Sequence record: OZ346167.1
Source of the DNA: a phage
Direction: 5' to 3' (one strand)
Length of the DNA stretch: 64,000 bases
Shown piece by piece: positions 29,979 to 56,248 of the stretch. The notes under the pieces are model-generated. The model saw nothing but the letters and a program-made list of their open reading frames with translations. It was not told the origin of the DNA and ran no database searches. A program made the translations under genes and the position numbers. The first letter of the stretch is position 1, and each line of letters opens with the position of its first letter.

Positions 29979-30545
29979 TCAAGATAGTTTTGCAAACTCT
30001 CCGTGGAGTTTAATAGCAGCTTCACAGTAAGCTTTATGGGCTTCTTCAGGTGTGTCATGGTAACCTAAAAACATCTTCTTACCTTTATAACTTATCTGTG
30101 CGACCCACTTACCAGACTTCTTCTTCAGGCTTACACCCTTATAGCCTGATTTATTGGTGGATAGTTTGCTTTTATTCCAAGCACTTTGGTAGTCATATGC
30201 TTCTCTTAAGTTTACAATCCTGTTATCAAGGGAGTCTCCATTAATATGGTCAATAACACCTTTCGGCAACCTACCATACATGTACAGCCATGCGAGTCTG
30301 TGTGCTTTATGTGCTTTCTTGTCAAAATAGATAGTAATCTGCTTATGACCAGTTGAGTCAATCTGGATGCTCCCCGCTACCTGTCCTGCGTACTGACTAT
30401 TAAAAACTTTAACAGCCTTTGAGTCGCCCTCTCTACGAAGCCAAGTAAAGACCCCTGTTTCGGGGTCATAGTGTAGTAGTTCCTTTAAACGTTCTTTTGT
30501 AATCATTTTGTCACCATTAATGCACTTCCAACCACGATTTACCAA
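29979..30545 (-). CDS. HNH homing endonuclease with AP2-type DNA-binding domain (free-standing)
   Basis: HNH core HRLAWLYMYG...IDHINGDSLDNRIVNLR; AP2-like GYKGVSLKKKSGKWVAQISYKGKKMFLGYHDTPEEAHKAY; overlaps 3' end of polymerase exon 2; paralog of 40353-40868. Confidence 0.8.
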   Translation of the reverse strand: MVNRGWKCINGDKMITKERLKELLHYDPETGVFTWLRREGDSKAVKVFNSQYAGQVAGSIQIDSTGHKQITIYFDKKAHKAHRLAWLYMYGRLPKGVIDHINGDSLDNRIVNLREAYDYQSAWNKSKLSTNKSGYKGVSLKKKSGKWVAQISYKGKKMFLGYHDTPEEAHKAYCEAAIKLHGEFAKLS

Positions 30546-31076
30546 CCTTTGCTGTACCAGTTACAAGTGTTTCTTTCCTCAAACCTAAGTTTTTTGAAGC
30601 TTGTCCATACATCCAGTCAGCAATTGCTTTCATATCATGTGTCATACCCTCTGGACATTCCCAACTATTTTCATCGTGATATGCCAGAAGTAACCTTGCT
30701 CCGATAGCTGGTTTTCGAGCATTCAGTTTTGTCAGGCCATCTTCACAGGCTTTTCTTGCTGCTAGGTTGATGGCCTCATTCTGAATCTGTGCTTCCGAAC
30801 TCATCAGGAGGTAGTTCAGTAGTTTATGTGGAGATTTGCACCATATCCATGCTCCAGCGACCCTGATATAACCACCTTTAGCAATTGAAGAATTCTTCCC
30901 AAAAACCTCTTCCAGAGCCTTTTTAGACGCCTTAAAATCGGCTTCTAAGCTATCAAGTAACTTCTTAATCTTTGGCAGACGCATATAGTAAGTTTGTTTA
31001 GTTAATGCACCTTCCTCTGTAGAAGCTGCCTTAATGGTTTTGGCAAACTTCTCATCACCTGCACCGAACAATACAT
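30517..31076 (-). CDS. DNA polymerase (family A, T7 gp5-like), exon 2 (C-terminal part)
   Basis: FGAGDEKF, SPHKLLNYLL, AYHDE (motif C) align with T7 DNA polymerase C-terminus; in-frame stop immediately upstream at 31081-31083; exact 5' boundary uncertain by a few nt. Confidence 0.8.
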
Positions 31077-31347
31077 CTGGTCAATACACTCGCAAGGTGT
31101 ACCAGTTCTCTTATGAACTTCTCCGCATTTCTACGGAGTGTCGGACTATATCACGTAGTAGTAATACTACCGTTGCACTTGGGAATGGTCATTGGCTTAC
31201 CACCCTACTCTACTCAGTTCATACGTTAAGTATGCTTTTCGATAGTCTCTGAACGTTCCTCTTAAGAGGCTTCGCTGCTGATTACCATATCTTTACAGAC
31301 TTAGGCTTCCAGCAATTCACAACGTTTTACATGCGCCACTGACGCAT
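31077..31347 (-). mobile_element. group I intron (ORF-less) in DNA polymerase motif B
   Basis: on the transcribed strand the conserved core elements P (AAUUGCUGGAAG), Q (AAUCAGCAGCG), R (GUUCAGAGACUA; + coords 31243-31252) and S (GAUAUAGUCC; 31143-31151) occur in canonical order; ends in G; splits polymerase motif B. Confidence 0.75.
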
Positions 31348-33514
31348 AAATGCCATTTTTGGCTTTCTTACGACCTTTTGTAATCTCGTGGAGAAGTTCC
31401 TCATCCTGTGTCTCCCTACAACGAACAATATCTTCTTCCTTGTTCAGACCAAAGTAAATACTGTTCAGTGTATGCGCATCAGTCCCTGTGTAGACTTCAT
31501 AGAGGTCGTTCTCAGCATCATAACGAAGATACTTGTCAGTTTCTGGATTAAGGTGCTTATCAAGATGTTTGCAATAATATCTCCCATCTTCTTGCTTGGT
31601 AAATTCTACTGACTCTTTACCTTCAGTTACTGCTTTAGTGAACTCTTTATCACCCATAAAGTTACACAGTAAAACAAGCTGTGCAGAGTTCTGGTCAACA
31701 GAAACAATGTTAGTCCCCTCTTCACAAATCCACACTGCCCTCATAGGTGCTCCATAGACAGCAGCACCAGACGGTACGTTTACAATACCATATTGTGTCA
31801 TACGTCCAGTTGAAGTACCAAACACCATTGCACCAGCACTAAGGCGACCATCAGGACGAATCTGGTTCAACCAACCTTTTTCATCATCCTTTGAGTTCTC
31901 AATAGTTCTGCGTCGGTGCATCAAAGTATAGTACTTAGCAATCTTCTGTCCAAGCTCACCTTCAATCGTATCATAAGATGATTCAGTAAGTTTTGGTGAA
32001 GTACGGATTAAGCAAGGCTCAAGCAAGTCTGTGTATTTCTTCACAGACCAGTTATGCTCAATGTACTGTACACCTTCATGTTCAACATAACTCAAACCAC
32101 ACCGCTCAACCATTTCCTGCCACTTAGGATGCTTTGTAATCATCTTTTTATTGTCTTTGAAACGACAAACTTTGACAGGGCGACCATCTGAGTCTTTCTT
32201 GTAATTCCAGTCATCTGGAATCCAACCAACTGATTTCAAGTAGTCTTTAACAACTGCTACCTGAGTCATACGAGAAACTTCAAACTCAATTGGTGTATAT
32301 GGTGCATCAATCAAACCTGTGTAGCGACTTGACTCAAGTTCAAAGTGATTAACAACGTGGCTGTTATAGTACTTCACAGTTTTGACTGTTTTTACTGGCT
32401 TCCAGTCTTTGCATTTCTTACCAATCTTTGCGTTCAACTCATTGCAAATTGCACGAGCATCCTTCATTGCTACAAATCCCTCTTTGTACTCTTCACCAGT
32501 TACAGAGTTGGTTGGTGTATAGCAATTTCTCTTTTCAATGTTAAAAATCTTTGTAGTTGGCTTACCAAATGGCTTGATTTCATATGTCTGCATCTCACCG
32601 TTACGTACCTGCTGACGATACTTTGTCTTAGGGTACTTGGTAATCCTCTTCAGCCCATCTGCATGACCGAATGCTTCAACATATTCATTCCAAGCTTTTG
32701 CAAACTCTTCTCCAGTAACTTTACCTTTGGTCTTAATAGTTGGAGGAAGATGTGGTTCAACCTCTGAAGCAAGCTCATTAGTCAACTTGTCAAGTTCCTT
32801 TACATGGAACTCCATAAGCTCTTTATCAGCTTTCCAACCATTGATAGCTTGCTGGCTCATCCAGAAAGATGTTTCTTTAGCTCGCATGTAGGTTTCATAA
32901 GTGTCTATGCCACACTTCTTAAGCTTGAGATACTCGTTATCAAGTGCCCGTTTAGTTTTGGCGTTAATACGGATATCTTCTACGACACGAGTGAAGATTT
33001 CTGCATTCCACACACCCCAATGCTCAATCTCTGGCTTACGAACACCAACACGAGCACCCCATGCAGCCAAACCATGAGCACCTTTATAACCCTTTGGAGT
33101 TGGCCTATCCATCCACTGAACACGAGACTGGATAAGAGAATCCTGAAAGAAATTACCCCACGGCTTACATTTTGGATTATCAAAGTTCCATAAATCAGGT
33201 GCAATGTGATTGAAAACCCACCAGTCATAACCGAGACCATTATGGATGCAAAGACGTTTTGCCTTTAACGCAAATTCAACACCTTCACGTAAACCACCTT
33301 TGATGTACTTAGTGTACTTGTGACCGAGGATAGGCTCATCTGTAAAGACCCATACAGGTGGCTCTTCATCGTCAGATTTATAGTCTGCAAAGGCCATTAC
33401 GTGAACTTTAGTGAACTCAAGGAGTAAACCATCAGTTTCTGTATCACCAACCAAATGTAAGTTTTTAAAATCTACGTTTTCCATTTTTACTCCCTCTAAA
33501 ATCATTAACCTCAT
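31348..33514 (-). CDS. DNA polymerase (family A, T7 gp5-like), exon 1 (3'-5' exonuclease and most of polymerase domain)
   Basis: motif A-like IVSVDQNSAQL and start of motif B RKKAKNGIY; continuous ORF ends in a stop 16 codons into the intron. Confidence 0.8.
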
Positions 33515-46904: not shown

Positions 46905-47103
46905 ACGCCTTTGGGAAGGTTTGGTTGTTGATGCACCAGCTATTGTGATTGGTATGCTTATTGTTAACCTATTTACTGACTTTGAACAAGGTTCATTGTT
47001 TGGAGCTATGTTACTATGGGTTATCTTTGAAATATTAGAGATACAGTTAGGTATAACTGAAAAACTAAGAGAACTCTTTTCGAAGTTTTCTAAAAAGATT
47101 TAA
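46897..47103 (+). CDS. small membrane protein
   Basis: 68 aa with two hydrophobic segments. Confidence 0.3.
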   Translation: MLKRLWEGLVVDAPAIVIGMLIVNLFTDFEQGSLFGAMLLWVIFEILEIQLGITEKLRELFSKFSKKI

Positions 47104-47111
47104 AATGAAAG

Positions 47112-47132
47112 GGTCTCTTCGGAGACCTTTTT
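47112..47132 (+). terminator. rho-independent terminator (UUCG tetraloop)
   Basis: GGTCTC-TTCG-GAGACC followed by TTTTT. Confidence 0.6.
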
Positions 47133-47151
47133 AGCATGTAAAGGGGCAATA

Positions 47152-48348
47152 ATGAACAAAGTACAGATTATTAAAAAGAACGGCTCACTTGAAGAACCTG
47201 ATATCAAAAAAGTTTTAGCAGCAGTCACAAAGTCAGCTAATAGGGTTGGGTATAAAGAACTCCCACCAGATGTTACCCAAGCTCTTGAGTCAGCATTTAT
47301 GAGGATTCTGGTAAAATCCACTAAGCAGAATAATTTACTCATTTCAGTAAATGATATTCACAGTATTGTTGAGGGTGCTTTGGCAGAAGTCAATCACGAG
47401 ATTTATGAGTCTTACTCAACATATAGAAATTACCGTAAAGAAGTTGCTCAAAATTGGGATGAACTCTACCAGAAGACCAAAGATACACTCTTCTTAGGTG
47501 ACAGAGAGAATGCTAACTTTGACAGCAGTTTAATTTCTACAAAAGGTTCAATTATTCGTGGTTATCTGACTAAAGAAATCTTTAAACAGTACCATTTAAC
47601 ACCAGAGGAACTTGAAGCCATTGAAAAAGGGTTTATCTATATCCATGATTTAAGAGACCTAATTTTTGGTGGTATCAACTGTTGCCTGTTTGACATTGGT
47701 AAAGTCCTGAAAGGCGGCTTTGAAATGTCTGGCATCGAATATTGTGAACCAAAGTCTGTACTGTCGGCCTTACAGGTTATTGGTGACGTAGTTCTTTCAG
47801 CAACTGCACAGCAATTTGGTGGTTTTACTTTAGCAGAGATTGATAAGGTACTTGTACCGTATGCTAAGAAGTCTCTACGCTATCATGCTGAGAAAGCAGC
47901 ATCTTATGGTATTCCTAAAGAACATTACCACAATTATGTCATGGAGCAGCTACAGATTGAACTGACTCAAGGTTTCCAGTCACTTGAAATGAAGCTAAAT
48001 ACTGTACCTTGTAGTCGTGGGGATTTTGCATTCACAACTTTGACATTCGGGTTACTTGACTCAGATATGTCCAATGAAGATAACCGACTGCAATATATGA
48101 TTGCAAGTACTCTCCTAGATGTTCGTATGAATGGACAAGGTAAGAGCAAGAAGCCTGTTGTATTCCCTAAACTGGTTTATATCTATGACCAGAAGAGACA
48201 CGATGAGAATATCTGTCAAGGACACCTGTACAGTAAAGCCATTGAGTGTTGCTCTAAAGCAATGTATCCAGATTTCTTAAGTGTATCTGGTCATGGTGCT
48301 GTAGCAGAAGCTTTTGAGCGTTCTGGCAAGGTAATTTCGCCGATGGGT
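47152..48348 (+). CDS. nrdD: anaerobic ribonucleotide reductase (class III), exon 1
   Basis: ATP-cone-like N-terminus; ORF ends ...KVISPMG then stop at 48349-48351, exactly where exon 2 resumes with CRAFLSPY. Confidence 0.8.
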
Positions 48349-49090
48349 TAACAGGCTCTATAGCTCATCTAAAACGTGCCTAAACAGGGAAACTCTACAG
48401 GTGTAGACAATCCTGTGCTAAATGATGTACGATGTAAGAAACTATACAATATAGGAGTCTTACATGCCAAACTATCACGTCACTGAAGATGGAAAAGTCT
48501 TTAGGGAAAATGGTGTAGAGCTTACGCAGTGGAAATCCAACACTGGGTATATGAAAGTGAGGTTTTACGGTAAGAAGAATCGTGACATGTATGTCCACAG
48601 GTTAGTTGCTGAGAAATATGTACCTAACCCGAATAATCTTCCAATTGTAAAACATAAGGACGATAACAAACTAAATAACCACGCATCTAACTTAGAATGG
48701 GGTACTCATTCTGAGAATGCTAAAGAGGGTTATGAGAACGGATGTTACAAGTTCCACAAGCGTTCATATGCCGTGAAAGCCACACACAAAGTGACAAAGG
48801 AAGTTATTGTTACTAAGTCAATACGAGAGTTGTCCAATATACTTGGACACAATCGCAAGACCATCTCTTCAATATTGAAGGGTGTAAAAGAGCATAATAA
48901 CTTCGAATATGAGTTTGAATACATCTAAATGCCGAACGACTAACCGTGATGAATGTAGCGGTGTAGGGTCAAGCGACTCGAAATGGTACGCTACTTAGAA
49001 ATAAGTAGAAGATATAGTCTGGACTTACTGGCGACAGTAAGCAGCTTGAATAAAGCGGGGTAAGCTTAGCGAACTTACCTGAACAACAAG
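48349..49090 (+). mobile_element. group I intron in nrdD carrying an HNH endonuclease ORF
   Basis: follows exon-terminal U, ends in G; P4-like pairing CCUAAACAGGG / AAUCCUGUG; R-like GAACGACUAA (48934-48943) and S-like AAGAUAUAGUC (49010-49019); internal ORF 48464-48928. Confidence 0.75.
48464..48928 (+). CDS. intron-encoded HNH homing endonuclease
   Basis: HNH core HRLVAEKYVPNPNNLPIVKHKDDNKLNNHASNLEW; located inside the nrdD intron. Confidence 0.75.
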   Translation: MPNYHVTEDGKVFRENGVELTQWKSNTGYMKVRFYGKKNRDMYVHRLVAEKYVPNPNNLPIVKHKDDNKLNNHASNLEWGTHSENAKEGYENGCYKFHKRSYAVKATHKVTKEVIVTKSIRELSNILGHNRKTISSILKGVKEHNNFEYEFEYI

Positions 49091-50038
49091 TGTAGAGCGT
49101 TTTTATCACCATACCATAACGAATATGGTGAAGAGTTTTATGTAGGTCGTGCTAACATTGGTGCTGTATCTTTGAACTTACCAATGATTTACCAGTATTC
49201 TAAAGAGAATGGCTTAGATTTCTGGAAAGAGCTTGATAAGTACCTAGAAATGATTCGCAGCTTCCACAAGAAACGTTACGAAATGATTGCTAATATGCCA
49301 GCAAGTTCTAACCCTCTTGCATTCACACAGGGTGGTCTGTACAAAGGGAATAAGAAACCTACTGACAAGGTTGGCTGGGATATCGTGAAGTCCTTCACAG
49401 CTTCTTTTGGGGTTACTGCGCTTGATGAGCTATCTGTTCTTGCTGAAGGTAAACGACTTCATGAAGTTGGAAGCTGTAGTTTTGCATATGATGTTCTGGA
49501 ATATATCAACATGAAGACTGAAGAGTTTAAAAATGAAGATGGCTTCTTATATGCAGTCTATGGCACTCCAGCAGAATCACTTTGTGGAACTCAGCTAAAA
49601 CAGTTCAGAGATATGTTTGGCGTTATCAAAGGCGTTTCTGACAAGGAATACTTTACAAACAGTTTCCATATGAATGTTGCAGCAGATATTACACCATTTG
49701 AGAAGCAGGACTTAGAAGAACCCTTCTTCCATATCTGTAGAGGCGGCAGAATCCAGTATGTAAGAGTGGCTAACCCAGAAAACTTATCAGCACTTAAGAG
49801 TTGTATTACAAGAGGGATGTTGAAAGGTTTCTATCAGGGACTTAACTTTGACTTAGCAATCTGTGAACATTGTGGTAACAGACCAAAGGCTGATGTTGAA
49901 GAATGTGAGGTTTGTCATTCACACGATATCTCTGTGATTAACAGGGTGTGCGGATATTTGGGATGGACTAAGATTAAAGGTGAATCCCGAATGAATGATG
50001 CAAAAATCGCTGAGATTCGTGACAGAATTTCTATGTAA
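49091..50038 (+). CDS. nrdD: anaerobic ribonucleotide reductase (class III), exon 2
   Basis: begins CRAFLSPY... and ends with glycyl-radical motif RVCGYLG; in-frame stop just upstream at 49088-49090. Confidence 0.8.
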   Translation, partial: CRAFLSPYHNEYGEEFYVGRANIGAVSLNLPMIYQYSKENGLDFWKELDKYLEMIRSFHKKRYEMIANMPASSNPLAFTQGGLYKGNKKPTDKVGWDIVKSFTASFGVTALDELSVLAEGKRLHEVGSCSFAYDVLEYINMKTEEFKNEDGFLYAVYGTPAESLCGTQLKQFRDMFGVIKGVSDKEYFTNSFHMNVAADITPFEKQDLEEPFFHICRGGRIQYVRVANPENLSALKSCITRGMLKGFYQGLNFDLAICEHCGNRPKADVEECEVCHSHDISVINRVCGYLGWTKIKGESRMNDAKIAEIRDRISM

Positions 50039-50049
50039 AACTTGACAAG

Positions 50050-50436
50050 GTGATGTGGGTCTTGATAGGCTTACATCACCTTTTTATTTGGAGTTACATT
50101 ATGGACTTGTGGCTTTATGTAGCAGTTTGTGGGATTGTATGTCTGATAATCTTATTTATTCTTGGAATAATGCGATTTAGAGACATCATACAGTCAGATT
50201 TTTTGCCTGAGTTTACCATGATGGTTGGAGTTATTGCACTTTGTGTCTTGGCGGTGTTCTATTCATACAAAACTGTGATATGGATGAAGGCAAACAATTG
50301 TGTAAAAACTCATCAACATCGTGAGGTTACTTATTTTGTGAGTGTACTTAGTGGGAATACCACTGTACTTGTCCCACAAACTTCTGTAGAGTATCTTTAC
50401 ACATGTGATAATGGTAAAACTATATGGTGGAATTAA
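50050..50436 (+). CDS. integral membrane protein
   Basis: 128 aa with 2-3 hydrophobic helices. Confidence 0.35.
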   Translation: MMWVLIGLHHLFIWSYIMDLWLYVAVCGIVCLIILFILGIMRFRDIIQSDFLPEFTMMVGVIALCVLAVFYSYKTVIWMKANNCVKTHQHREVTYFVSVLSGNTTVLVPQTSVEYLYTCDNGKTIWWN

Positions 50437-52760: not shown

Positions 52761-53276
52761 ATGTATCTATCAAACCTAAAACGTTCGGCTGCAATGTCAG
52801 TTCTAAGACTCAGCTTTGAGGAACGTCAAGAGTTCATTGATTCCCACCAATACGACCCTTCTAACTCCAATCACATGATTCTCTGGAATCGTGAGAGTTC
52901 CCGTGAAAGAGCATTATTCCGGTATTACCCACACTACACCGTAGATAACCTGTATGAATGTTTTGTTGTGAAGAACACCATTACAATACTCAATAAACTT
53001 TGCAGATACACAGGTAGTCAATCCTTCACATTAGGACACCACAAACCTGTTACAAAGGGTGGTGAGCATCACTGTGCAAACTGGTTTATCCAGACTAAAC
53101 TTGATAACCAGAAGCAAGGGGATAGTCTTTTAATTACCCCTAAGATGACCTACGAAGAGCAAGAGAAATATATCAAAAATAATATGCCAGATGTGCTTGA
53201 CAACAACTATACAGATTTGGCAATATCTCTCCTGTTGAAGTTCGAGACAGTTTATAGGGCAACTTATAATGGCTAA
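52761..53276 (+). CDS. HNH-motif nuclease candidate
   Basis: GHHKPVTKGGEHHCANWFIQTKLDN fits the HH..P...GG.....N HNH core. Confidence 0.4.
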   Translation: MYLSNLKRSAAMSVLRLSFEERQEFIDSHQYDPSNSNHMILWNRESSRERALFRYYPHYTVDNLYECFVVKNTITILNKLCRYTGSQSFTLGHHKPVTKGGEHHCANWFIQTKLDNQKQGDSLLITPKMTYEEQEKYIKNNMPDVLDNNYTDLAISLLLKFETVYRATYNG

Positions 53277-53547
53277 AGAAAAGTGGGAGATTTTACCATT
53301 AGTCAGTGAAGGCGGCAATGGTTGTGAAATGTACATGATACGTGGTCATATTCCAGAGCCAATTGCACTTGAGATGGTAAATAATTATACAGATGGTTCC
53401 TGCAAAGACTTAGGAGAACCAACTGTCAAGCAGCAATGGGTAAAGCCTGTGCCAGACAGCACAGGTAACTGTAGTGTACTTTATCACGTTGTAGACCCTG
53501 TAAAATGCAAATCTGCAATGGCAGTAACAAACGTAACTTTTGATTGA
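53269..53547 (+). CDS. hypothetical cysteine-containing protein
   Basis: 92-aa ORF. Confidence 0.3.
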   Translation: MAKEKWEILPLVSEGGNGCEMYMIRGHIPEPIALEMVNNYTDGSCKDLGEPTVKQQWVKPVPDSTGNCSVLYHVVDPVKCKSAMAVTNVTFD

Positions 53548-54440
53548 GAGAGAAAACTATGAAAACATCTATCCGTGTTACAATTCATTCACCAACTAAA
53601 GGAACTCATGAAGAAGAGTTTAACATCATTCAATTCCCTTCTGGTGAGATTGGTGGACACTTTTCACAAGAGCTAGTTGATTTTACTGCTTATGCAGCAT
53701 CCTCCATTAACAATGTGGTTATGATTGTAAAAGGCTACGACAAGGACACATTGTTTGCTGTGGCACTTGCTAAAGAAGCAATTGATGATTTGATTCCTCA
53801 TGATTATGCCTTAAAGACTGTCATCTTTTACTACTTACCAAATGCACGATATGACCGTCACATGTTTAAAGGTGATGCAGCAGCTTTGAAGGTTTTTGCT
53901 AAACAGGTTAATGCAATGGGGTTTGGTGCAGTCTGTGCAGTTGACCCTCACAGCTATGTACCAGATAACCTGTTTAACTGCTTCCAGAGTATTCCTCAAA
54001 AGGAGATTGCAGTCCACTATGCAAATGACCCACTGGTTGATTACTTAGTAGCCCCAGATGCAGGTGCTGCTAAGAAGGTTGCAGAGACCGCTAAAGAGGT
54101 GGATAAACCATATATCACAATGTCTAAGGTGCGTAACCTTAAGACTGGTGAAATTACTGGTATGCGAATCCTTGATGATGTTGATTTGACAGATAAAACC
54201 GTCATGATTCTGGATGATATCTGTGATGGTGGTCGAACCTTCATAGAAGCAGCTAAGCATCTTCGTGAAGCAGGTGCAAAACGTGTGGAACTTTATGTAA
54301 CACATGGTATCTTCTCTAAAGATGTTGAAAACCTTCTTGACAATGGTATCGACCATATTTACACTACAAACTCTTTAGGCGAAGCTAAAGACCGTGGCTT
54401 AACACATTATGGTCAAGTTACTGTAGCAAACCTTGATTGA
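53544..54440 (+). CDS. ribose-phosphate pyrophosphokinase (PRPP synthetase) family protein; candidate ADP-ribose pyrophosphate synthetase of a NARP1-type pathway
   Basis: PRPP-binding loop ILDDICDGGRT and YLPNARYDRH (cf. ARQDR flexible loop); adjacent to NAMPT-like gene. Confidence 0.7.
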   Translation: MREKTMKTSIRVTIHSPTKGTHEEEFNIIQFPSGEIGGHFSQELVDFTAYAASSINNVVMIVKGYDKDTLFAVALAKEAIDDLIPHDYALKTVIFYYLPNARYDRHMFKGDAAALKVFAKQVNAMGFGAVCAVDPHSYVPDNLFNCFQSIPQKEIAVHYANDPLVDYLVAPDAGAAKKVAETAKEVDKPYITMSKVRNLKTGEITGMRILDDVDLTDKTVMILDDICDGGRTFIEAAKHLREAGAKRVELYVTHGIFSKDVENLLDNGIDHIYTTNSLGEAKDRGLTHYGQVTVANLD

Positions 54441-54449
54441 AAGTTTATA

Positions 54450-54470
54450 GGGGCTTGAAAGCCCCATTTT
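54450..54470 (+). terminator. hairpin / weak terminator between the Prs-like and NAMPT-like genes
   Basis: GGGGCTT-GAA-AAGCCCC followed by ATTTTG. Confidence 0.4.
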
Positions 54471-54544
54471 GAGAGAGATTAAAAGATGACTAAATCACTT
54501 TATGCAGTACCAGCAGGTTTAAACGCAGATGCTTACAATATCTT

Positions 54545-55897
54545 ATGTTGAACCTGACACCACGTAGTGACAAATGGTTTAACAGCCCTTTGGCAATTGA
54601 CGGTGTAGTGGCTTTTGGTATTCAACGTTTCGTTAAAGATTACTTGATAGACCATTGGAACGCCACTTTCTTTGAACGTGACAAAAAAGAAGCAATTGAC
54701 GAAATCTTAGAAGTCATGAACGGCGTTATGGGTAAAGATGCTATTGGTCGAGAGCATTGGGAAGCACTTCACGACTTAGGTTATCTACCAGTTGAAGTAT
54801 ACGCTGTAGAAGAAGGCACAGTTGTCCCGATGCGTGTCCCAATGATTGTCTTCCAGAACACTGTTTCAGGTTTCCATTGGGTAGCAGGTTATCTGGAAGA
54901 TGCTTTCTCTGCTGAGATTTGGAAGGCTTGCACCATTGCAACTATTGCATTGCATTATAAACGCATCTGTAAGAAGTGGGCTGACCTTACTTGTGACAAC
55001 GACTTACATTTACCTTATCAGTGTCATGACTTTGCTATGCGTGGTATGTCAGGCTTTACTGATGACGCATTTAACGCTGTAGGTCACTTAACCAGCTTTA
55101 AAGGAACTGATAGCTTCCCTACTGTGTATACGGCTAAACGAATCTATGGACAGTCCTACCCAATCTCTGATATTGGTAGCTCTGTACCAGCCACTGAACA
55201 CTCTGTAATGTGTGCAAACATTGCTTGGGAAGGTGGTAATGAATTGATTGAAGAAGAAAGACGCTTTAAAGGTGAGTTACAAACCTTCCGTCGCTTCTTA
55301 ACAGAAACTTACCCAACTGGTATTGCAAGTATTGTTTCAGATACTTATAACTTCTGGAGAACTGTGTCAGAAATCTTACCAGCACTCCGTAAAGAGATTA
55401 TGGAACGTGATGGCAAACTGGTAATTCGGCCTGACTCTGGAGACCCTGTACATATTGTCACAGGATATAAAGCAATCCACTTAGAGTGTGCTAAGAAGGC
55501 TTATTACGAACACTTAAGCAAGCTTGAAGCCAGCGACACAATGTTGAATGCTGTTCTGAACATGAAGCTTGAAAACATCAATTATGGTATTGCTGGATGG
55601 CTACTGTCAGAAGGCTACGAAATGGTTGTTGACAGAGAAGACTTTGAAGTTGCTGATACAGTGCTGTTGAAAAACGCTTATATGGTTGGTTCTGCAAACG
55701 TTGTAACACGTCCTGTAGCTGAGATTGATGGAGCTATTAAGACACTGTACAACATCTTTGGGGCTTTGTATCTCACCTTGATGTTGAAATTGATGAAGAA
55801 GGTTACATCATTGGTTGGAAGAAAGTATCTACTCGTGAAGGCAAGCTGGTTGACTCCCACACCTACAGAGTACCTAATGATTTGGGTAACATTGTAG
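54545..55897 (+). CDS. nicotinamide phosphoribosyltransferase (NAMPT/NadV) family protein; candidate nicotinamide ADP-ribose transferase; reading frame probably continues in +2 frame to 56208
   Basis: matches NAMPT blocks: HDFAMRGMS, SFKGTDS, SVPATEHS, VSDTYN, IRPDSGDP; last ~50 codons are atypical and an overlapping +2-frame ORF runs on to 56208. Confidence 0.7.
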   Translation: MLNLTPRSDKWFNSPLAIDGVVAFGIQRFVKDYLIDHWNATFFERDKKEAIDEILEVMNGVMGKDAIGREHWEALHDLGYLPVEVYAVEEGTVVPMRVPMIVFQNTVSGFHWVAGYLEDAFSAEIWKACTIATIALHYKRICKKWADLTCDNDLHLPYQCHDFAMRGMSGFTDDAFNAVGHLTSFKGTDSFPTVYTAKRIYGQSYPISDIGSSVPATEHSVMCANIAWEGGNELIEEERRFKGELQTFRRFLTETYPTGIASIVSDTYNFWRTVSEILPALRKEIMERDGKLVIRPDSGDPVHIVTGYKAIHLECAKKAYYEHLSKLEASDTMLNAVLNMKLENINYGIAGWLLSEGYEMVVDREDFEVADTVLLKNAYMVGSANVVTRPVAEIDGAIKTLYNIFGALYLTLMLKLMKKVTSLVGRKYLLVKASWLTPTPTEYLMIWVTL

Positions 55898-56208
55898 AAA
55901 TGCCACGTTGGATGGTTGATAATAACCGTAACGTGACTTGCTCTCAAGGTCTTCATGTTGGTGCTTGGGATTATGTTCGTTGCTTCTCAGGTGATACAAT
56001 TCTGAAGGTTCGTGTCCATCCACGAGACGTTGTATCCGTACCAACTGATTACAACGATATGAAGATGCGCTCGTCTCGTTATGAAGTTGCAGCAATCGTT
56101 GATAATCAACGTAAAGTGCTGAAAGCATGGGATGGCAAGACTGAAGCTTTGCATGTCATCGTTGGCACTGCTGGGGAACTCATCTCTCAGCGTAAACGTG
56201 AAATCTAA
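55741..56208 (+). CDS. probable C-terminal continuation of NAMPT-like protein in alternative frame (or separate small protein from 55882)
   Basis: +2 frame is open from 55741; inserting one G at the GGGG run 55761-55764 fuses both frames into one ~554-codon ORF. Confidence 0.4.
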   Translation, partial: DTVQHLWGFVSHLDVEIDEEGYIIGWKKVSTREGKLVDSHTYRVPNDLGNIVEMPRWMVDNNRNVTCSQGLHVGAWDYVRCFSGDTILKVRVHPRDVVSVPTDYNDMKMRSSRYEVAAIVDNQRKVLKAWDGKTEALHVIVGTAGELISQRKREI

Positions 56209-56224
56209 TAAGTAATTTCTTAAA

Positions 56225-56248
56225 AGGCTGCTTCGGCGGCCTTTTTTA
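56225..56248 (+). terminator. rho-independent terminator (UUCG tetraloop)
   Basis: AGGCTGC-TTCG-GCGGCCT followed by TTTTTT. Confidence 0.6.

Follow-up and report, generated by a model that had tools for sequence, protein, structure and literature searches.

Intact adps beside a namat pseudogene: an apparently decayed NARP1 operon in a Felixounavirus genome

The phage DNA analysed here (a window of 64,000 nucleotides from sequence record OZ346167.1) very probably holds a Felixounavirus NARP1 operon in a decayed state, with an intact adps gene and a namat pseudogene that carries two lesions (Table 1). Judged from the sequence, the NARP1 pathway is most likely dead in the source genome. In intact relatives, Adps pyrophosphorylates ADP-ribose (ADPR) stemming from host NADase defences to ADPR-PP with the use of ATP, and Namat replaces the pyrophosphate of ADPR-PP with nicotinamide to yield NAD+. 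In the source genome, a 37-nt deletion between short imperfect repeats would have severed the first 17 namat codons from the remainder, and a microhomology-mediated deletion of approximately 4.15 kb would have created an out-of-frame namat-rIIB junction. The initial annotation had proposed a gene pair for NAD+ reconstitution as a counter-defence; its assignment to the Adps/Namat family held, whereas a functional counter-defence role is unsupported in the source phage, because namat is broken twice, with N-terminal and C-terminal losses.

The source phage is a Felixounavirus, i.e. a Felix-O1-like coliphage. The window is collinear with coordinates 223-67232 of Bas63 (JohannRWettstein), in which NARP1 lies in the same genus, genomic position and set of flanking genes, and the neighbours of the locus match Bas63 gp77, gp78, gp86 and gp87 at 95-99% identity. 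By alignment and gene order the gene pair is the orthologous, syntenic counterpart of Bas63 genes 79-80, the NARP1 operon. NARP1, consisting of Adps and Namat, was discovered and genetically validated in these two genes (bioRxiv 10.1101/2024.02.11.579819; PMC11482910); the system has already been described in the literature, with its structure characterised and its genetics worked out in a sister phage, and there is no new mechanism here.

Table 1. Positions of the features at the NARP1 locus in the window.
Feature	Position	Strand	Description	Basis
adps	53559..54440	+	ADP-ribose pyrophosphokinase, Prs homologue; intact, 293 aa	Pfam, PHROG, orthologue alignments
Hairpin between adps and namat	54450..54470	+	GGGGCTTGAAAGCCCC then ATTTT	Read directly from the sequence
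namat 5' stub, detached	54486..54551	+	21 codons: 17 authentic including Asp15 and Tyr17, then frameshifted NILC and stop	
37-nt deletion junction	54524..54539	+	Inside imperfect direct repeat CAGATGCT(T)AC(GC)AA	
namat remnant	54545..55761	+	Bas63 Namat residues 33-438 of 593; Nampt-like core motifs kept, C-terminal third gone	
Large-deletion crossover	55756..55761	+	CTTTGG, within 19/23 imperfect homology AAGACnCTGTAnAACAnCTTTGG	
Out-of-frame tail	55762..55897	+	Last 45 codons of the 450-aa ORF; rIIB DNA in the wrong frame	Frame analysis
rIIB 3' remnant	55762..56208	+	About 148 last codons (residues ~222-369); no upstream start, frame open from 55741	
Intrinsic terminator downstream of rIIB	56222..56245	+	10-bp stem and T-run; relatives annotate a terminator there	Terminator scan

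The adps gene

The PRPP-synthetase motifs ILDDICDGGRT and ARYDRH, which the initial annotation had noted in the 53544-54440 ORF, are present, and Pfam agrees with matches to Pribosyltran (8e-12) and Pribosyl_synth (4.7e-10); the product moreover belongs to PHROG 619 (1.8e-96). The Prs-like ORF stands as described except for its start, which is most likely not TTG 53544 but the ATG at 53559, preceded by GAGAGAGAAAA and favoured because all relatives are annotated so. The protein is 98% identical to wV8 gp136 and 77% identical to Bas63_0079 over the full length, and the Adps sequences of the window, Bas63, wV8 and LinBro align over 293 aa with no gaps. A protein identical to the window Adps was found in MN850603 and a Logan contig, adjoining an intact namat of 593 aa in either case.

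Among the NCBIfam models the window Adps reaches only the broad TIGR01251 subfamily and stays below every Prs equivalog cut-off (e.g. 105 bits versus 296), and the best solved Prs structure matches it with only E=3e-17. By these comparisons, and by its identities to the Bas63 and wV8 proteins, the window protein falls in the phage Adps clade and not among canonical Prs. Its loop MSKVRNLKTGE lines up with IEKERDRTTGE, the corresponding loop of Prs structure 4TWB, and the catalytic-loop lysine, which we take from known Prs alignments to be the equivalent of K197 in B. subtilis Prs and K162 in SpbetaL1 Adps, is invariant in all four Felixounavirus Adps sequences. Conversion of ADPR and ATP to ADPR-PP has been shown for SpbetaL1 Adps and in vivo for Bas63. 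In the Adps clade, 97% of the members are encoded adjacent to a Namat gene; here namat does adjoin adps with a 45-nt spacer, but it is a pseudogene. Expression of adps probably continues in the source phage. The hairpin in the spacer is kept in wV8 and Bas63 and was not called in the terminator scan.

Plain PRPP/NMN salvage by Prs and NadV would agree with most GenBank records, in which the products are named 'ribose-phosphate pyrophosphokinase' and 'nicotinamide phosphoribosyl transferase', and with the residual PRPP-to-NMN activity of Namat in vitro (PMC12774641). This reading is nevertheless highly improbable, given the Prs equivalog cut-offs that Adps fails to reach, the ability of Bas63 to overcome SIR2-HerA even in a pncC nadR double-deletion host and to make ADPR-PP, and the Namat-specific SCH motif, which the Felixounavirus orthologues carry instead of the Nampt equivalent; the NAMPT-like gene is in any case truncated here. 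NARP2 or canonical salvage (NadV and Nmnat of KVP40) and cellular Prs and NAMPT draw on the same two protein superfamilies, but the window offers no Nmnat partner and its Prs homologue is of the divergent phage Adps type.

Two deletions in namat

The NAMPT-like gene had been placed at 54545-56208; alignment to relatives sets its authentic ATG at 54486, and base-level alignments reveal a frameshifting deletion of 37 nt between 54538 and 54539. The junction was aligned against wV8, Bas63, LinBro, MN850603 and the IMG/VR locus L013. The resulting stub is translated as MTKSLYAVPAGLNADAYNILC followed by a stop, as compared with MTKSLYAVPAGLNADAYKSGHVYQYP... in wV8 and Bas63, and by tblastn Bas63 Namat residues 1-18 match frame 3 of the window and residues 30 onward match frame 2. 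After the deletion an internal Met opens the 450-aa ORF; its ATG overlaps the stop codon of the stub (ATGTTGA), and reinitiation at this codon could give a truncated Namat product. The divergent N-terminus, formerly taken as a sign of an altered substrate, is a product of the deletion.

In some relatives (LinBro, MN850603) an HNH gene separates adps from namat, and the window allele is of the HNH-less type on the left side of the 37-nt deletion and of the HNH-associated type on its right; therefore, imprecise repair after a homing cut was considered as its origin. Such collateral damage by a homing endonuclease is not supported, as L013, which has a wV8-type gene start and no HNH gene, has an undamaged 'HNH-type' allele from the 37-nt segment rightward, so that slippage between the CAGATGCT(T)AC(GC)AA repeats in an L013-like parent suffices.

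The second lesion was defined by a three-way alignment of the window, the LinBro/wV8 namat and the LinBro rIIB. Window position 55761 equals L002 position 4868 and window position 55762 equals L002 position 9022; 4153 bp are missing. Codon 438 (of 593) of namat is hereby fused out of frame to the end of rIIB, with loss of namat codons 439-593, two small ORFs, all of rIIA and rIIB codons 1 to ~221 (60%). In Bas63, gp81-83 and rIIA/B lie downstream of namat, whereas tblastn detected none of rIIA, gp81, gp82, gp83 and the Namat C-terminus anywhere in the 64-kb window. The namat remnant comprises 406 codons with no internal stop and is 94.6% identical to Bas63_0080 over residues 33-438, and NAMPT/Namat homology ends at 55761.

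The DNA from there to 56208 does not encode NAMPT, as had been supposed, but, in a different reading frame, the 3' end of rIIB. The remnant falls in PHROG 609 RIIB (7.2e-44), which identified it, while a Pfam search of the 155-aa ORF in the rIIB frame gave no match. It shows 98.4% nucleotide identity to LinBro rIIB, with 172 records at 95-99%, and tblastn aligns it with Bas63 rIIB residues 216-367. Neither a complete frame with a start codon for rIIB, a protector of membrane integrity, nor a partner rIIA is present in the window. Translation could in principle pass through the junction by a -1 frameshift and yield a new chimeric protein with a function of its own, given that the rIIB frame, open from 55741, shares 157 nt with the namat-frame ORF. 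This is extremely improbable: the junction was born from a deletion and is unique to the window, both halves lack essential parts of their parent folds, and the 157-nt overlap contains no canonical -1 slippery heptamer.

Both junctions lie inside short imperfect direct repeats, which is the pattern expected for slippage or illegitimate recombination. Both events look recent and real, in view of these repeats, the identity of the Adps protein to copies beside intact namat, the stop-free remnant and the full-length state of other genes in the window. A contrasting view is that adps was kept without namat as a functional one-enzyme variant and not by recent accident, with a stand-alone Adps that drains ADP-ribose or ADPR-derived molecules into ADPR-PP/ADPR-cP and blunts ADPR-dependent host responses; this is quite unlikely.

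Assembly or sequencing artefacts, or a deletion subpopulation, could also mimic decay in a phage that truly has intact namat and rIIA/B and a functional NARP1. The sequence stems from a single assembly, for which an erroneous join, or a deletion variant carried by a minority of the stock, is conceivable, and neither junction was found elsewhere by megablast against 50,697 phage records or by exact scans of IMG/VR and JGI metagenomes. An exact-protein look-up of the 450-aa ORF likewise returned no match. The locus region was matched by 260 Felixounavirus-type records, none of which extends past window position 55761 (query position 2562), and of the 236 phage records that match namat, 215 contain at least 80% of the gene. 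An artefact is still unlikely: the perfect overlap at the large junction amounts to only 6 bp, too short for an assembler mis-join, a 37-nt loss is atypical for a read error, and no other broken genes occur in the window. All other Bas63 ORFs of at least 80 aa with a high-identity window match are full length except the intron-split DNA polymerase. A second namat copy may conceivably sit in the roughly 22 kb of the source genome beyond the window; the relatives carry exactly one each (236 places, 236 records). Natural deletions of the NARP1 operon exist, which also counts against an artefact. The Felixounavirus FM4b of Salmonella (PP068124) has independently lost ~2.45 kb of adps-namat through a deletion that is, as in the window, flanked by microhomology and destroys the operon; FM4b loses adps from about codon 29 through namat codon ~537 and keeps rIIA/B, whereas in the window adps survives and the 3' end of namat is gone together with rIIA/B.

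Residues kept and lost in the Namat remnant

The comparison of both products with Prs and NAMPT that the initial annotation had put forward favoured the Adps/Namat family in each case, with Prs equivalog cut-offs failed by the one and, for the other, the SpbetaL1 Namat structures 9W5X/9W5W as best match (E=4e-80, as against ~1e-27 to 1e-31 for canonical NAMPTs). The NAMPT blocks HDFAMRGMS, SFKGTDS, SVPATEHS, VSDTYN and IRPDSGDP are indeed encoded in the 54545-55897 ORF, in agreement with a Pfam NAPRTase match that is confined to profile positions 1-132 of 239. The remnant aligns to 9W5X residues 43-333, with HDFAMRGMS, GTDS, PATEHS and IRPDSGDP at its core motifs, and the Nampt-like core is kept, namely the equivalents of SpbetaL1 F189, R192, D215, the catalytic His, R306 and D308. 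The window copy shares these core residues with SpbetaL1 Namat (9W5X, 9W5W; PMC12774641) but ends at the equivalent of its residue ~345 and lacks G360-A362, G390-F392, Y396 and T398-D400, which make up the selectivity clamp helix. Full-length Felixounavirus Namats differ from SpbetaL1 Namat by an insertion of ~83 aa (residues 344-426).

SpbetaL1 Namat requires Asp13'/Tyr15', which stack nicotinamide, as well as Gly360-Asp361-Ala362, Gly390-Ser391-Phe392, Tyr396 and Thr398'-Arg399'-Asp400' (PMC12774641). The equivalents in Bas63 and wV8 Namat (D15/Y17, GDS and GSYTYQYMTRD) all lie in parts that are detached or deleted in the window. D15/Y17 remain in the stub, separated from the Namat core by the frameshift and not on the same polypeptide. 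The ribose/phosphate-binding equivalents (IYGDS and GVGS, corresponding to SpbetaL1 G360-D361-A362 and G390-S391) follow residue 438 in Bas63/wV8 and are deleted, as is the region of the selectivity clamp helix for adenine recognition, which reads GSYTYQYMTRD in wV8 and Bas63 and for which the motif GS-x-Phi-x-Phi-x-Phi-TRD has been defined (PMC12774641). Compared with Bas63, the window Namat has no in-frame residues 1-32 and has lost residues 439-593 altogether. No full-length match to the family profile was obtained for the window copy: with NF006629, for which the cut-off is 405 bits, the 450-aa ORF reaches 276.6 bits and covers positions 32-315 of 465, and the full-length Bas63 protein reaches 468.2 bits (positions 9-462).

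A functional NARP1 module, with both enzymes active and the odd N-terminus conferring ADPR-PP specificity, is very unlikely in light of these losses. The family identity is correct and the core motifs HDF.MRG, GTD, PATEHS and RPDSGD are kept, but the N-terminal Asp/Tyr pair is frameshifted off, the 155 C-terminal residues with GDS and the GSxxxxxxTRD clamp are deleted, the profile score is below the cut-off, and clamp and core mutations abolish the activity of SpbetaL1 Namat (PMC12774641).

Predicted consequences for the source phage

A decayed NARP1 operon would leave the source phage with no NAD+ from this pathway and with at most ADPR-PP, decaying to ADPR-cyclic phosphate. Bas63 without genes 79-80 loses protection against SIR2-HerA and no longer makes ADPR-PP; loss of either g79 or g80 alone lowers plating on Sir2-HerA 10^4-10^6-fold, and loss of g84 or g85 (rIIA/B) lowers that on QatABCD 10^4-10^5-fold (PMC11482910). 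As the g80 deletion alone cuts plating on Sir2-HerA, the source phage is predicted to be devoid of NARP1 and rII counter-defence, with loss of protection against Sir2-HerA, Thoeris I, DSR and retron Ec86 and loss of rIIA/B-dependent protection, e.g. against QatABCD. Clonal single-gene deletion mutants of Bas63 plate on the wild-type host (PMC11482910), so the genes are dispensable there, and the source phage should be viable on defence-free hosts.

Annotation by motifs or Pfam would call the source phage NARP1-positive, whereas from its sequence it is predicted to be negative for NARP1 and rII and should be vulnerable to NAD+-depleting systems, retron Ec86 and QatABCD. Provided that the deletion is real, the source phage is a natural knockout with adps but no functional namat, rIIA or rIIB, and studies of host range or phage therapy could set it against intact Felixounaviruses. 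In a weaker version of the one-enzyme idea, the anti-defence island from gp77 to rIIB may be shed recurrently by microhomology deletions in Felixounaviruses on defence-poor hosts (cf. FM4b).

A literature search for spontaneous rII deletions in Ounavirinae returned nothing relevant beyond the BASEL and PhageMaP papers. In T4, rII deletion mutants such as r1589, a rIIA-rIIB fusion, are viable, and in them rII function is removed and two neighbouring genes are fused. The window differs in that it comes from another phage family and its fusion is out of frame and reaches into an anti-defence operon.

The NARP1 locus and its adps gene

The 3.2-kb region round the locus matched 260 phage records, nearly all from Felixounavirus (Felix O1 / wV8 / HY02 type), at 90-97% identity. 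The entire 64-kb window, which is the genome without its last ~22 kb, was collinear with Escherichia phage JohannRWettstein (Bas63, MZ501086) from the terL start (Bas63 coordinate 223) to coordinate 67232. Position 1 is the exact terL start codon, which suggests re-orientation to terL by an annotation pipeline. Bas63 is the discovery phage of NARP1, the operon of adps and namat; without genes 79-80 it is SIR2-HerA-sensitive, no ADPR-PP is formed and NAD+ is lower in infected cells, and the SpbetaL1 homologues convert ADPR to ADPR-PP and then, with nicotinamide, to NAD+ (bioRxiv 10.1101/2024.02.11.579819).

The initial annotation had described an adjacent Prs-like/NAMPT-like gene pair and read it as an NAD+-reconstitution module. 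The motifs are real and the family is right, the locus being a NARP1 homologue of Bas63 genes 79-80; the gene model was wrong, as namat carries 5′ and 3′ lesions and the 3′ end of rIIB follows, and the module is predicted to be non-functional here. By descent and as a kind of system the locus is NARP1 and works like it; this kind is already known and the sole new element is the decayed copy. Plain Prs/NadV salvage is contradicted by the genetics of Bas63 in a host lacking both pncC and nadR (bioRxiv 10.1101/2024.02.11.579819). From NARP2 the locus differs in having no Nmnat.

The motifs quoted for the first gene were found in ORF 53544-54440, which matched Pfam Pribosyltran and Pribosyl_synth. 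Adps aligned without gaps at 98% identity to wV8, 77% to Bas63_0079 and 78% to LinBro, and the identical protein is encoded by MN850603 and a Logan contig, each time adjoining an intact 593-aa namat. It reached only the broad TIGR01251 subfamily, below every Prs equivalog cut-off, and its closest solved structure was an archaeal Prs (E=3e-17); these low Prs-profile and Prs-structure scores fit the divergent phage Adps clade. The NARP1 membership tests of fold, clade and catalytic-loop lysine were positive for adps, with a broken namat as its neighbour, and on sequence grounds the gene was concluded to be intact. That Adps is useful by itself, without namat, is very unlikely.

Two allelic types of Adps occur in the genus (the window type and that of Bas63, L007 14747-15628), with 77% identity overall; the N-terminal ~180 residues are markedly unlike and the C-terminal ~110 almost the same, a contrast that suggests intragenic recombination. 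Between adps and namat, a conserved GC-rich hairpin (GGGGCTTGAAAGCCCC, then ATTTT; 54450-54470) could act as an attenuator of read-through into namat; it was not among the calls of the terminator scan.

Coordinates of features in the window
Feature	Position	Strand	Details
Group I intron	31121-31404	-	Rfam RF00028, 64.2 bits, E=5.8e-14; no internal ORF
gp77 homologue	52761-53276	+	171-aa ORF, 96% identical to Bas63 gp77
adps	53559-54440	+	293 aa from the ATG annotated in relatives (MKTSIRV...); preceded by GAGAGAGAAAA
Crossover CTTTGG	55756-55761		within 19/23 imperfect homology between namat and rIIB

Two lesions in namat

In wV8, Bas63 and LinBro the NAMPT-like gene has 1782 bp (593 aa) and opens with MTKSLYAVPAGLNADAYKSGHVYQYPSATEYLMFNL. 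The window has the same ATG at 54486, but reading from it gives MTKSLYAVPAGLNADAYNILC, then a stop; alignment to relatives revealed 37 nt absent between 54538 and 54539. In the nearest undeleted allele (L013, IMG/VR) the lost segment is bounded by an imperfect direct repeat, CAGATGCT(T)AC(GC)AA. The 450-aa ORF from 54545 begins at internal Met33, its ATG overlaps the stop of the detached 5′ stub, and no Shine-Dalgarno sequence was found before its start. The main Namat polypeptide is thereby deprived of Asp15/Tyr17 (Bas63 numbering), equivalents of Asp13/Tyr15 of SpbetaL1 Namat, a pair that stacks against the nicotinamide ring across the dimer (PMC12774641). The 'divergent N-terminus' taken as fitting an altered substrate is actually this 37-nt deletion.

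At the other end, the match of every relative stops at 55761. From 55739 on, the window matches the 3′ end of LinBro rIIB at 98.5% identity, and the translated frame after the junction matched PHROG 609 'RIIB' at 7e-44. Missing are about 4.5 kb versus Bas63 and 4153 bp versus LinBro, the latter comprising codons 439-593 of namat, two small ORFs of 111 and 58 aa, the 788-aa rIIA and the first ~221 codons of rIIB; tblastn over the 64-kb window found none of the missing genes elsewhere. The namat and rIIB frames are one apart at the junction, and therefore the ORF in the namat frame continues through 45 codons of rIIB DNA before its stop at 55897; a slippery heptamer for a frameshift was looked for there and not found.

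Full-length Bas63 Namat aligned to SpbetaL1 Namat (PDB 9W5W) as two blocks, residues 5-343 and 427-586, and the window protein retains only the first plus a lineage-specific insertion. Absent are the equivalents of Gly360-Asp361-Ala362, Gly390-Ser391-Phe392, Tyr396 and Thr398-Arg399-Asp400 and the selectivity clamp helix, whose consensus GSxΦxΦxΦTRD sets Namat apart from Nampt (PMC12774641); in wV8 and Bas63 the motif is GSYTYQYMTRD. Pfam NAPRTase gave 49.7 bits, covering profile positions 1-132 of 239 (Bas63, 121.7 bits in two stretches), and NCBIfam NF006629 276.6 bits (Bas63, 468.2; cut-off 405), scores that agree with the truncation. Four NARP1 Namat tests were negative: N-terminal Asp/Tyr, GDS, clamp helix and full-length profile. 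Because catalytic-core and double clamp mutations deprive SpbetaL1 Namat of both NAD+ synthesis and anti-defence activity (PMC12774641), and deletion of Bas63 g80 alone lowers plating on Sir2-HerA by 10^4-10^6 (PMC11482910), the window copy should be non-functional. The gene's proper label is namat pseudogene rather than Namat.

The insertion, ~83 aa in Felixounavirus Namats (residues 344-426 in the Bas63 protein, whose gene is L007 15674-17455) and absent from SpbetaL1 Namat, separates the RPDSGDP block from the C-terminal block and is kept in the window remnant (about 55574-55720).

Age of the lesions and the surrounding island

The lesion events appear recent: Adps matches its counterparts from intact operons exactly, the namat remnant has no internal stops, and the only other broken gene in the window is the DNA polymerase, split by a bona fide group I intron. 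Because neither junction was found in a second sequence (phage records, IMG/VR, JGI metagenomes, exact-protein look-up of the 450-aa ORF), an assembly artefact or minority variant keeps a small probability; such an origin is improbable, and a perfect overlap of only 6 bp at the large junction and a small lesion of 37 nt are not typical of artefacts.

The polymerase is split into ORF 31301-33514 (Bas63 residues 1-724) and ORF 30517-31071 (residues 726-909); in Bas63 this site is without an insert. In nrdD (about 47000-50100) an intervening sequence with a homing-endonuclease ORF was expected from collinearity with Bas63_0067/0068, and Rfam at gathering threshold returned no intron there.

The corresponding Bas63 stretch is an anti-defence island, in which gp77 works against retron Ec67, g79/g80 against Sir2-HerA, retron Ec86 and hhe, and g84/g85 (rIIA/B) against QatABCD; clonal mutants lacking single island genes were obtained and plated on a defence-free host (PMC11482910). 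The window retains the gp77 homologue and adps and has lost rIIA/B and, by prediction, namat function; thus the deletion should be viable, yet costly on defended hosts. For the gp77 homologue, Pfam yielded weak DUF7167 and HNH-like signals only.

Loss of NARP1 by deletion has been seen at least once elsewhere, in Salmonella phage FM4b (PP068124), in which ~2.45 kb were lost independently, fusing adps at codon ~28 with the final ~56 namat codons across a 9-bp microhomology (L011 3924-4171). Otherwise namat is well conserved, with at least 80% of the gene, in single copy, in 215 of 236 records. The FM4b genome has only 82,003 bp. In some Felixounaviruses a 163-aa HNH homing-endonuclease gene lies between adps and namat (LinBro, L002 3050-3541; MN850603 and a Logan contig, L009 and L010 8891-9382); the window, wV8 and Bas63 are without it. 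Two strongly diverged alleles exist for the first ~35 namat codons, mostly but not always following HNH presence, L013 being a mosaic.
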